DNA of 64,000 bases from Cyanidioschyzon merolae (Eukaryota), in assembly GCA_000091205.1 (NCBI GenBank), contig AP006492.2. One strand, 5' to 3'. The position numbers and the translations under genes are program-made. Position 1 is the stretch's first letter. Each line of letters begins with the position of its first letter. Shown piece by piece: positions 34,718-36,976 of this stretch. The notes beneath the pieces were generated by a model. It had not been told where the DNA came from. It saw only the letters and a list, made by a program, of their open reading frames with translations, and did no database searches.

Positions 34718-36976
34718 ATGGTGGTGAAAACCTTCCTTCTTAAACATATCAAGGATCCGTGCAAGGAAAAGTTGCGAGACGCTATCAAAAAACGTGTCGA
34801 CTCGTACTCCAAGAGTATTGTCAAGGCGTCGTCAGTACTGATGCATTTGGTGAGGGAGATGTATCGCGACGTGACGCACATGGAAACAGTCGAGATTCCT
34901 GACGATTTTTTCGACAAGACGTTTATTCGTCACCTGATGCTTGGCACAGCGGAAGCGCTGAAGGAAAATATGCTAGTGCACGCCCTCCACGAAAACTTGG
35001 TGGAATTCCGCTTCGAAGGTAATCGATACAGGGGTGCCTCGGATATTTAGGCATACGGAGCGAAAAAGTACATCACGAGTCTGAAGAACCATTTGACAGT
35101 GAACCTCGAACGTTTTATGATACGCGCGGTGGGTACACTCTACCCGGGCATCTTTCGCAACGGAAAATGGGCGATTATCAATGGCATCATGAAAGATCGA
35201 AAGTATGAAGTTGAGATCGAGTTTGTCGATAAGAAGGCGTCACGCAGGAGCGCAAATGAAGCTTCTGTAATCCGTGCGGCTATCCAAGAGTATCGTGCAG
35301 TCCTGGGGCTGGCGAATTTGGCAGAAAATTTATCAGAGTTGAAAAAAGATAAGGAAAGATACTACCGCCTCATCCTGTGATATTTCGTGTTTCTGGACCG
35401 AGAGCTCGAACGCGAAGCGGAGATGAAGCTGAGTGAAGAGACAAATCAAGAGTGGGAGAGACGGAAGGCTTTCCTAATGGGTAAGCGCTTCAACGGCGTT
35501 CCAATGTGCAATATCAAGTCACATTTCGTGACTATCGATTCAGGCGTCCTTTACGGCATCATGAGGGAGATCTGTCCGGAGTTCGATGTGAGCAGGGAGG
35601 ACTTCATCGGTGAAAACCGGGAGACGTACTGGAAGAGTATCTTCGATTTCAAACGTCTCAAAGTCAGCAAACAAAAGGTATTTACTGGGTTGATCGAAAC
35701 CGATGGAGTAGCCACGTGTGTACTCTATCGGCGGTTGAAGAAAGATCGTCCAGTTCCGCCCTCGGCCGCGCCCGTCACGAGGGATGCAGAAAACAAAGAG
35801 GAGGATTCTGTGATGCAGGAGGTGGAGGATACCGAGTTTGTCGTTGACGTGACGAAGGATGAAGAAAACAAAGAGGAGCATCCTGCTACGCAGGAGGTGG
35901 AGGATAACGACCTTGTCGTTGACGTGGCGAAGGATGAAGATGAGAAGAAGGCGGATCCTTCGGCGCAGGAGGTGGAGAATAACGACTTTATGGTTGACGC
36001 GGCGAAGCATGAAGAAAACAAGGAGGCGGGTCCTGCGACGCAGGAGGTGCAGGAGAACGACTTGGTCGTTGGCCTTGACCCTGGGAGCACGACCATCCTA
36101 GCCATTGCTGCACCCAAGCGTGCGGAAGACGGTACTGACGGCAAATTACGTCAGAAAGACATGCGTGTGTTCAAGCTCTCGAATGCGAGATATTACCGGG
36201 AATCGGGAACCATGAATGCGAGGAAGAAAATTGAGACTTGGAATTCAGGAATAAAAGAGCACCTGGAAGCTATGAGCGAGGTGACGAGCCGAGGAGCGGA
36301 CTTTCGAGCTTTTCGGAAATTCATGGAAGTTCGTGTTGCTCATTGGGAGGCGCTGTTGGAGGAGTATACAAAGCCCGTGTGAGCTCGTCTGTGTATGAAT
36401 CTGTATTGTGGAAAGCAGCGTGCATTCGCGAACTTTTTCCATGAGTTGAGCGCCTCGAAAGAGGACAAGACTCAAAGGCTCGTCGTAGCGCACAGAGCGG
36501 TGCACTGGATGACCCAAAAAGGGACTCCGCCAGCTCCAACGACGAGAACGTACAAGGAGTGTGCACGGCGTTTTGTTACAATACCTGCAGACGAGTTCCG
36601 AACATCTTATACACACCATGAGCTGGGTTGTAAACTTCAGAGGGTCGAGATGAAAATGTGCCAGCGGAGCCCTAAGGACATAGCAAAGTACGGACCGCTG
36701 ACGGAGGAGCTAATGGAAAGGAGGGCGAAAGTTCGTGGACTCTTTGCATTAGTAAGTGCAACCAGTGATGGCAAGAAACGTATGGAGTTTGTGAACCGCG
36801 ACTTTAATGCTGCCATCAATATAACGAGATATGCGGTGCTGGAGACGAGACCTCCAGAGCAGACAAGAGAGCTCTTTGTTGAACAGTCACTAAAAGTTGA
36901 ACTATATGAGAAGAAATGGGAAGCAGTAGTGGATGGCCGTTCGAAAAAGACGGGGAGGCGTCTGCATGTTAGTTAA
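34718..36976 (+). pseudogene. Fanzor (TnpB-like RNA-guided nuclease homolog) ORF in copy B. In-frame stops: TAG at 35048, TGA at 35378, TGA at 36380.
   Basis: The four ORF-track segments 34718..35050, 35093..35380, 35387..36382 and 36395..36976 are all in frame 2 and separated only by stop codons. The first stop corresponds to TAC (Tyr) in copy C. Confidence 0.75.
35785..36065 (+). repeat. 69-bp in-frame tandem repeat, 4 units. It encodes acidic 23-aa units ([25 protein letters not shown]) just upstream of RuvC-I in copy B.
   Basis: Repeated protein units are visible in the 35387..36382 translation. Copy C has one unit and copy D about two. Confidence 0.75.

Follow-up and report, generated by a model that had tools for sequence, protein, structure and literature searches.

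Copies B and C of a Fanzor1 family share a tract of 447 bp without a single mismatch, and this tract was most probably produced by a recent ectopic, non-reciprocal gene conversion between the two copies in the lineage of the window, atop an older exchange. The window is the whole stretch of DNA analysed here, 64,000 nucleotides of Cyanidioschyzon merolae (contig AP006492.2). B and C are oppositely oriented and convergent (tail-to-tail) and lie 9.66 kb apart in the nuclear genome (Table 1). Recent gene conversion between inverted copies, a case of concerted evolution, is the best-supported reading of the tract and is built on direct observations, namely that the copies are identical there, that this identity exceeds statistical expectation, that constraint does not account for it and that the tract is divergent in other strains.

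Extent of the identity between copies B and C

Exact ungapped comparison showed that positions 36378-36824 of copy B (+ strand) equal the reverse complement of positions 46935-47381 of copy C, with 0 mismatches in 447 bp, and that the first mismatch on the 3' side is located at 36825/46934. The zero-divergence tract reported in the first-pass annotation is real, but its ends had been placed at 36383 or 36395 and at 36825 or 36826 instead of the true 36378 and 36824. The tract is part of an ungapped block of high identity (36003-37050 versus 47756-46709) with 28 mismatches in 1,048 bp. The upstream flank (B 36003-36377 versus C 47756-47382) had 13 mismatches in 375 bp, an identity of 96.5% that agrees with the former estimate of about 97%, and the downstream flank (B 36825-37050 versus C 46934-46709) had 15 mismatches in 226 bp, an identity of 93.4%, in keeping with the substitutions seen earlier in the last ~230 nt. 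The homology of B and C does not go beyond the 3' end of the element, located at 37050/46709.

Uniform divergence along the alignment, named beforehand as the result that speaks against the tract, was not seen, since exact comparison gave 0/447 against 13/375 and 15/226. The contrast between the tract (0/447) and the pooled flanks (28/601) was highly significant (Fisher test, 1.5e-7). The probability of a gap of at least 447 bp, given 28 differences over 1,048 bp, was 5e-6 in a maximum-gap simulation, with which the formula agreed, and this rules out chance as the cause of the identity.

Table 1. Positions of the features of copies B and C in the window
Feature	Position	Strand	Description
Copy B, main body	34338..37050	+	Fanzor1 pseudogene; four in-frame stops, no frameshift
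75-bp tandem repeat, four units	35773..36071	+	25-aa, acidic; directly upstream of RuvC-I
Upstream flank, B	36003..36377	+	contains RuvC-I (GLDPG); left edge within last 75-bp repeat unit
Identical tract, copy B	36378..36824	+	encodes ARLCMNLYCGKQ ... NRDFNAAINI; contains RuvC-II (DEFRTS) and RuvC-III (NRD); probable donor
In-frame TGA common to B and C	36380..36382	+	in C at 47379-47377; three bases into the tract
Downstream flank, B	36825..37050	+	ORF end (TAA TGA, 36974-36979) and 3' tail of the element with conserved hairpins
Single-copy spacer	37051..46708	.	9,658 bp; citrate synthase, GCK-domain ORF, 280-aa ORF, emp24, other ORFs
Copy C	46709..49759	-	Fanzor1 pseudogene, several frameshifts
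Downstream flank, C	46709..46934	-	holds the private premature TGA of C, 46929-46927
Identical tract, copy C	46935..47381	-	exact reverse complement of 36378-36824; probable acceptor
Upstream flank, C	47382..47756	-	5' portion of the high-identity block in C

Assignment of the copies to Fanzor1

All the split RuvC motifs, with D (I), E (II) and D (III), are present in B as GLDPG (I), DEFRTS (II) and NRDFNAAINI (III; NRDxNAAxNI), and they align with those of PpFz and SpuFz. Neither B by itself nor a profile of 10 sequences had a meaningful match in Pfam or the PDB, and AlphaFold with the 10-sequence alignment gave a pLDDT of 34. The family profile and the AlphaFold model are based on an alignment of 50 sequences from a representative search, in which D484, E656 and N727 show no variation and D725 almost none. 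The hmmsearch with this profile matched 9cf0 (1.6e-19), 8gkh (1.8e-11) and 9cer (6.4e-6). The fold comparison was made with the intact homologue P0001, 66% identical to B, whose AlphaFold model had a pLDDT of 81. Comparison of this model with SpuFz gave target-normalised TM-scores of 0.70-0.73 (E ~1e-16), and Fanzor1 proteins took the first seven places among the Foldseek matches, where the target-normalised TM-score reached 0.73.

The family resembles the solved Fanzor1 proteins SpuFz, PpFz and GtFz (PDB 8gkh, 9ceu-9cez, 9cf0-9cf3, 9cer) in profile, fold and RuvC motifs, but B and C are dead copies, no CxxC...CxxC zinc finger is apparent between RuvC-II and RuvC-III, and the family carries before RuvC-I an acidic insert of 25-aa tandem repeats that is disordered in the model. 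Between RuvC-II and RuvC-III, B and P0001 have only THHELGC...C and no CxxC pairs; a single Cys of this region is kept in the family consensus, and matches to the Pfam TNB domain were all sub-threshold. Of the domains formerly assigned to the tract, RuvC-III is indeed inside it, together with RuvC-II, but the family shows no evident C4 zinc finger of canonical form. Conserved hairpins were predicted by RNAalifold in the tails of 71-74 family copies, at 36808-36838, 36839-36857, 36992-37004 and 37027-37046; nearly every change in them was a G-U wobble, and no compensatory pair among these copies was convincing. An Rfam search over the whole window gave no match. The downstream flank of B may be the omega-RNA region, but the omega-RNA proposed in the first-pass annotation is not endorsed on these results.

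CMe-1A, a Fanzor1 element of Cyanidioschyzon merolae, was described as 3 kb long, present in ~150 copies that are ~80% identical to the consensus, devoid of terminal inverted repeats and sharing its 5' 635 bp with the short element TE-N2_CMe (Bao & Jurka 2013; PMC3627910). The window family fits CMe-1A when matched to this published description, as distinct from the Repbase consensus sequence. The likeness concerns the cyanidiophycean red algal host from hot springs, the length of the window copies (~3.05 kb), their identity to each other and to other family copies (mostly 71-88%), and the solo 5' pieces of roughly 470-600 bp at 24704-25298 and 8736-9263. Among named species, the PGK of the host was closest to that of Cyanidium caldarium (83%), and one further match was at 92%.

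Loss of coding capacity and absence of constraint

B and C are pseudogenised members of this ~3-kb family: four in-frame stops interrupt B, the reading frames of C, D and A are broken by frameshifts as well as stops, and none of these copies is intact. The 5' terminal part of B appears to have been moved to ~30074-30950 by a 3.3-kb insert, and the 5' two-thirds of C is an orphan lineage with at most 77% identity to any other copy found. At the site of the TGA common to B and C, copies A and D and the intact homologues have TGG, which encodes a Trp that is invariant in the family alignment. The orthologous ORFs of other strains, of 331 aa for the B type and 265/270 aa for the C type, match the window ORFs that end at the shared TGA, and positions 36380-36382 hold no variable site among the orthologues; the shared TGA is apparently also present in the B and C orthologues of other strains. 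The premature TGA of C is located just beyond the tract (and not at ~46842, where the second TGA of C had been annotated and where it is absent), and the usual TAA TGA of the family is found in C at 46785-46780. Reassignment of the stop codons was rejected because the in-frame stops mix TGA and TAG and because TGG stands in A and D where B and C share their TGA.

Comparison of copies A and D with B showed an identity of 81.7-83.3% within the tract, 80.8-82.4% in the upstream flank and 73-78% in the downstream flank. The tract is not slow-evolving, and constraint is not the cause of the identity of B and C. Purifying selection that holds the tract invariant, acting either on an RNA embedded in it or on the C-terminus of the nuclease, finds some appeal in the presence of RuvC-II and RuvC-III in the tract and of conserved hairpins that start near its 3' edge. 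It is nevertheless exceedingly improbable and is already refuted by the TGA that both dead copies carry three bases into the tract, by the 17-18% divergence of A and D from B in the tract, and by the 7-12 tract sites at which the orthologues of other strains differ. The pseudogene state of both copies and the lack of greater conservation of A and D in the tract than in the upstream flank agree with the first-pass proposal of recent gene conversion. Outside the orthologues, nothing more than 86% identical to the tract was found that could be a third donor copy.

Divergence of the tract in other natural strains

Exact-protein look-ups with the citrate synthase of the window, both ORFs of B and the ORF of C found no entry. 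Orthologous contigs ~99% identical to the window were available from several samples, one of which is a Yellowstone metagenome; metagenome contigs may blend strains and copies. Comparison of B-attached copies (L093 and L097) with C-attached copies (L086 and L098) showed 12-15 differences in the 447 bp of the tract (2.7-3.4%), which further supports recent conversion in the window. Two copies within a single contig also differed, at 6 of ~216 tract sites in L083 and at 7 of ~191 in L086. The Poisson probability of 0 differences when 15 are expected was 3e-7. In the tract, the window paralogues had 0 differences while the window and its orthologues had 7-12; in the flanks this order was mostly reversed, with 13 and 15 differences between paralogues and mostly 0-11 between orthologues. 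The exception was the B-attached contig L097, with flank differences from window B of 14/375 and 17/226, a distance as large as that between B and C because of C-type states in the L097 flanks. An apparent C-to-B patch in L097 covers 36799-36991.

Several contigs of other samples end in or near the tract, at 36393, 36437, 36609, 36630 and, as a pair, 36847 and 46912, so that those strains also carry identical stretches there, with other boundaries, which suggests recurrent exchange between the copies across strains. Contigs L003 and L085 have near-equal lengths and the same ends, yet several repeat-site differences. They probably cover one locus in closely similar data, and because of this discord the site-wise haplotype arguments, including that on donor direction, are only moderately secure. 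Contig L094 is 99% identical to the 5' part of B until ~36030 and ~83% identical beyond, with an unrelated downstream flank; it could be either a paralogue or a chimera whose two parts meet in the 75-bp repeats.

An artefact of assembly or polishing, by which read mis-mapping or consensus collapse partly homogenised the 1-kb inverted-repeat arms, is unlikely. Short-read assemblers do have visible trouble at this locus, with contigs interrupted at or within the tract and the spacer attached both ways round, and the window tract mixes B-linked and C-linked states of other strains as a majority-rule consensus would. However, the edges of the tract are sharp, 28 copy-specific differences were kept in 601 bp of flank, and the interruption of contigs from independent samples implies that the copies share stretches of identity in nature as well. 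An early-branching B-type haplotype explains the mixed states equally well, without homoplasy, and the branch length that it implies matches that of the flank (~1%).

Direction, extent and mechanism of the probable conversion

The mechanism, direction and timing that we infer for the conversion are as follows. By derived-state parsimony alone, B was probably the donor and C the acceptor: the window tract has four B-linked derived states (36588C, 36592C, 36711T and 36799C) and none of the C-linked derived states (36731T and 36799T). Its raw distances were near equal, 7-10 differences from B-type and 9-11 from C-type orthologues, and 36633A is a state private to the window that is found in both copies. 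One copy would have been overwritten by the other over at most 447 bp (36378-36824) and at least ~212 bp (36588-36799). A break in one copy was probably repaired with the other as template, by a pathway that may have been synthesis-dependent strand annealing or double-strand-break repair, at a time presumably later than the split from the sampled wild strains.

A proposed older exchange between the copies

On the 5' side of the 1,048-bp block, the identity of B and C fell to 66-87% per 100 bp (75% by BLAST), C lacks several of the 75-bp repeat units, and the N-terminal protein identity was 56-59%, below the 60-65% of the first-pass annotation. The shared 3' part was 84-88% identical to other copies, as was the 5' part of B. 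An older exchange of the subfamily type is required for this mosaic of ~75% identity in the 5' part and 97% over the 3' 1,048 bp. Recombination between subfamilies, raised earlier as an explanation of the whole, is thus needed for the larger mosaic but does not account for the zero-divergence core. The older exchange would have made the last 1,048 bp near-identical, after which the flanks diverged by 3.5-6.6%; the zone of its left boundary would be that of the 75-bp repeats, at 35773-36071.

If B or C had already been a chimera of two subfamilies at transposition, the block would have been inherited before insertion. The large-scale mosaic is real and speaks for such an origin, as do the orphan state of the 5' part of C (at most 77%) and the 84-88% identity of the shared 3' part to other copies. 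As an account of the tract it is very unlikely, because it cannot produce a zero-divergence core in flanks diverged by 3.5-6.6% and because the orthologous copies in other strains differ within the core. It may apply to the older 1,048-bp event only.

Orientation of the spacer

The orientation of the spacer relative to the 5' part of C varied between assemblies. In L003/L084, L085 and L083, the 5' part of C and a C-type upstream flank run on into a downstream flank of B type and the left spacer end; the linkage is the opposite in the window, in L086 on the C side and in L097 on the B side. The apparent switch points of linkage are all within 36378-36687, inside the tract. These opposite linkages and switch points would be expected if a reciprocal crossover between the inverted repeats had flipped the spacer of 9.66 kb and left the tract behind as its conversion scar or heteroduplex. 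This reading, which modifies the preferred one and still invokes recombination, is rather doubtful, since an inverted repeat whose core is identical makes either path a valid walk through the assembly graph, so that both linkages among the contigs are also the pattern expected from assembly ambiguity. In sample Ga0078972, L098 ends at 46913 and L087 spans 36847-46912, the assembler having broken exactly at the choice point. Moreover, L086 has the arrangement of the window with non-identical tracts, and the inversion and the conversion of the window are therefore not one event.

Recent conversion in the window remains the preferred reading of the tract itself. Tentatively, the convergent tails may form a recombinogenic inverted repeat, with recurrent two-way patches and flips of the 9.7-kb block (five to six host genes) in wild hot-spring populations, of which the window tract would be one snapshot. 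A more speculative extension is that breaks made by still-active nucleases of the family seed the tail-to-tail exchange.

Comparison with known systems

As an example of concerted evolution, here of transposon relics in a small algal genome, the tract is clean and datable. Neither recent transposition nor functional constraint can be read from the identity of Fanzor or TnpB copies, and repeat pairs of this kind break short-read assemblies or allow the spacer to be joined either way round. Should the inversion be real, dead mobile elements restructure gene order in natural populations of Cyanidiales.

The event is of a known kind, ordinary gene conversion between repeats, and involves no new mechanism. 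The algal genome is recombination-proficient, and non-allelic (ectopic, interlocus) gene conversion is familiar from nearby inverted repeats, such as the arms of the human Y-chromosome palindromes and the copy correction of plastid inverted repeats. As in these systems, a tract of perfect identity lies within diverged arms, the paralogues are closer there than the orthologues, and the inverted orientation permits exchange without deletion, while crossovers would invert the spacer. The arms of B and C form no large palindrome, however: they measure a mere 1 kb and consist of the tails of two transposon pseudogenes that diverged independently, and their homogenisation is patchy, with boundaries that depend on the strain.

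Tract shared by copies B and C

Comparison of the window with itself showed four copies of one Fanzor1-family repeat, A to D (see table), of which B and C are convergent, with their 3' ends 9,658 bp apart and single-copy genes (the spacer) between them. B 36003-37050 and the reverse complement of C 47756-46709 aligned without gaps over 1,048 bp and differed at 28 positions. All of these are outside 36378-36824 (C 47381-46935), which left an identical run of 447 bp between flanks differing at 13 of 375 and 15 of 226 positions. The first-pass annotation had described such a zero-divergence tract in diverged flanks and had placed it correctly to within a few bases; the second TGA that it reported in C at about 46842 is absent, the extra stop of C being at 46929-46927. 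Were 28 differences scattered at random over 1,048 bp, a difference-free stretch of 447 bp or more would have a probability of 5e-6; Fisher's test of the tract against the flanks gave 1.5e-7. B/C identity was 66-87% per 100 bp on the 5' side of 36003, where B has extra 75-bp repeat units, and homology stopped on the 3' side of 37050/46709. Clusters of adjacent substitutions at 36985-36987 (GCA vs AGT) and 36825-36832 (four changes in 8 bp) segregated as blocks among strains and have the appearance of either multi-nucleotide events or micro-conversion patches.

Repeat copies and other repeated features of the window
Feature	Position	Strand	Remarks
Copy A	583-1911	minus	truncated
Copy B	34338-37050	plus	
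Copy C	46709-49759	minus	
Copy D	58396 to ~62160	minus	
75-bp tandem repeat in A	1530-1829		four units
75-bp tandem repeat in B	35773-36071		four units
3.3-kb segment	1912-5223		96.6% identity to the other copy
3.3-kb segment	30954-34257		
Piece of element 5' end	8736-9263		
Piece of element 5' end	24704-25298		
Piece of element 5' end	30074-30273		
Piece of element 5' end	49216-49759		
Piece of element 5' end	61965-62159		
Microsatellite	17138-17181		(TGCG)n / (GCAC)n
Microsatellite	20334-20376		inverted to the preceding one

B stays in one reading frame over about 800 codons, interrupted by four stops (TGA, TAG, TGA, TGA) but not by any frameshift; A, C and D contain frameshifts in addition. 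The TGA at 36380-36382, within the tract, is common to B and C and is apparently also carried by their orthologues, whereas TGG, coding for an invariant Trp, is present at this site in A, in D and in every intact homologue. B was 81.7-83.3% identical to A and D within the tract, compared with 80.8-82.4% in the flank upstream of it and 73-78% in the one downstream. Constraint as the cause of the tract's identity was rejected because of this shared stop and because A and D are no closer to B there than in the upstream flank. The nearest non-orthologous family member was 86% identical to the tract, so that no third donor was visible.

Orthologous copies in other strains

Public assemblies were searched with the encoded protein, with look-ups of a spacer gene and of the B-type and C-type ORFs (types named after copies B and C). 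The contigs retrieved came from several JGI, ENA and Logan samples, including the Yellowstone metagenome Ga0078972 (PMC8986864), and were 98-99.5% identical to the window, except L097 (95%). Two contigs contained parts of both copies, which differed within the tract in each: at six positions in about 216 bp for L083 and at seven in about 191 bp for L086. Copies attached to a B 5' part (L093, L097) and those attached to a C 5' part (right arm of L086, L098) differed at 12-15 of the 447 tract sites, about the same as in their flanks. Sites 36588, 36592, 36688, 36711, 36731, 36752 and 36799 differed repeatedly across samples and are therefore old, copy-specific differences; B and C of the window have the same state at all seven.

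The paralogues of the window thus showed 0 tract differences and 13 and 15 flank differences, while the window and its orthologues showed 7-12 in the tract and mostly 0-11 in the flanks. The exception was the B-attached copy of L097, with 14 and 17 flank differences from window B, because C-type states are carried there. The reversed order of paralogue and orthologue distances within the tract classically marks concerted evolution by gene conversion and bears out the recent B/C conversion first proposed. On these alignments, the conversion would have taken place in the window lineage once this had separated from the sampled strains. An identical core would also result from a polishing or collapse artefact, which we consider improbable; the tract is in all probability a real gene-conversion tract between two Fanzor1 pseudogenes, statistically strong and well corroborated.

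Probable direction and extent of the conversion

The window-private substitution 36633A is present in both B and C and was therefore transferred together with the tract. The tract haplotype of the window has four derived states in common with the B-linked type and no C-linked derived state, and its implied branch length of about 1% matches that of the B flank, which together suggest, with moderate confidence, that B was the donor and C the acceptor. Four later B-linked changes are missing from this haplotype, which fits an early-branching window lineage. Judged by the informative markers, the converted segment comprises 36588-36799 at the least and 36378-36824 at the most. Most likely, a break in one arm of the inverted repeat would have been repaired from the other arm, 9.66 kb away, as template and without crossover.

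A proposed older exchange

The 3' 1,048 bp of B and C are 97% identical, whereas their 5' parts are only about 75% identical. The 5' part of C is an orphan, with at most 77% identity to any of about 100 copies, while other copies match both the shared 3' part and the 5' part of B at 84-88% identity. This suggests an older exchange in which C may have gained a B-lineage tail; the segment concerned begins within the array of 75-bp repeats and extends to where the element ends. The picture is complicated by L094 (JGI24721J26819_10028857, 1-3695), which matches B at 99% identity over 34750 to about 36030 and then continues into a generic family 3' end (about 83% to B) and an unrelated downstream flank, without the TGA at 36380. 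L094 may be a paralogue keeping the original tail of B, or a chimera that the assembler joined within the 75-bp repeats.

Orientation of the spacer and possible recurrent exchange

The C 5' part leads to the right (C-side) spacer end in the window and L086, whereas in L003/L084, L085 and L083 the C 5' part and C-type upstream flank lead to the B-type downstream flank and left spacer end. In L097, the B 5' part leads to the left end (citrate synthase side). Two linkages are expected from a crossover within the tract, i.e. inversion of the spacer, but inversion is not proven: both can also arise when an assembler traverses an inverted repeat whose core is identical. The Ga0078972 assembly halts exactly at the choice point, where L098 ends at 46913 and L087 spans 36847 to 46912, and further contigs end at 36393, 36437, 36609 and 36630. 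These breaks indicate that other strains likewise have identical B/C stretches, whose boundaries differ.

L097 (Ga0506604_001468), from another strain, has C-type states over at least 193 bp (36799-36991) in an otherwise B-context copy, and returns to B-type states before the spacer. Unless the assembler mixed copies, this is apparently a conversion patch in the opposite direction, from C to B. Contig breaks, linkages and this patch suggest recurrent exchange. A gene-conversion tract as such is a familiar kind of event, and the element family has been on record since 2013; only the possible inversion polymorphism could make the case more interesting.

Host genes and other features of the window

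The host genes are eukaryotic: Pfam identified PABP, Myb, P450, citrate synthase and emp24, and a homologue search identified PGK, whose nearest homologues are from cyanidiophycean red algae (83% identity to Cyanidium caldarium and 92% to an NCBI/JGI sequence). About 3 kb separates the two microsatellites, of which the second lies shortly before the PABP gene. One copy of the 3.3-kb segment adjoins truncated copy A and the other separates B from its 5' end; contigs L007, L009 and L077 contain related pieces (about 90% identity). The segment carries an ORF of 338/369 aa, for which a Pfam search gave no match and whose C-terminus resembles, by eye, the beginning of a reverse-transcriptase domain (YIPDVWRTAEVVP...NYRT..L).

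Identity of the repeat family

B as sole query gave no match in Pfam or in the PDB, while its homologues, tagged DUF8286, were plentiful in JGI metagenomes; a profile search gave 2,111 cluster representatives, many of 600-700 aa. A 50-sequence profile matched the solved Fanzor1 proteins PpFz (PDB 9cf0), SpuFz (8gkh) and GtFz (9cer), with E-values of 1.6e-19, 1.8e-11 and 6.4e-6, respectively, and with the RuvC motifs aligned. For the intact homologue P0001, the AlphaFold model (pLDDT 80.9) had Fanzor1 structures as its best seven Foldseek matches (E about 1e-16, target-normalised TM-score at most 0.73), ahead of Cas12 and TnpB structures.

The reading frame of B contains the motifs GLDPG, DEFRTS and NRDFNAAINI. 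RuvC-III lies inside the tract, as annotated at first, and so does RuvC-II; a canonical C4 zinc finger, also annotated there, is not apparent in the B/C family. Conserved hairpins begin at 36808, in which no compensatory covariation was found, and an Rfam search gave no match; overlap of the tract with a putative omega-RNA is unproven. The 75-bp repeat, with fewer units in C and D, encodes acidic 25-aa repeats directly before the RuvC-I motif, a region predicted as disordered in the AlphaFold model (residues 376-470), and its copy number differs among family members, the homologue P0008 having more. Across 74 copies, about four bases directly following the element 3' end (37051-37060 and equivalents; consensus GTTG) were about 50% conserved, which may be a target-site or TAM preference, and conservation beyond them was at background level.

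The window repeats match the published description of CMe-1A, a Fanzor1 element of Cyanidioschyzon merolae of about 3 kb, without terminal inverted repeats, with about 150 copies at roughly 80% identity to the consensus, whose 5' 635 bp are common to a separate short element, TE-N2_CMe (Bao & Jurka, PMC3627910). The pieces of about 180-600 bp that match the element 5' end only, some of them stand-alone, fit TE-N2_CMe. The window copies, at about 3.05 kb, are in line with the length of CMe-1A, are mostly 71-88% identical among themselves and to other family copies, and are accompanied by solo 5' pieces at 24704-25298 and 8736-9263.
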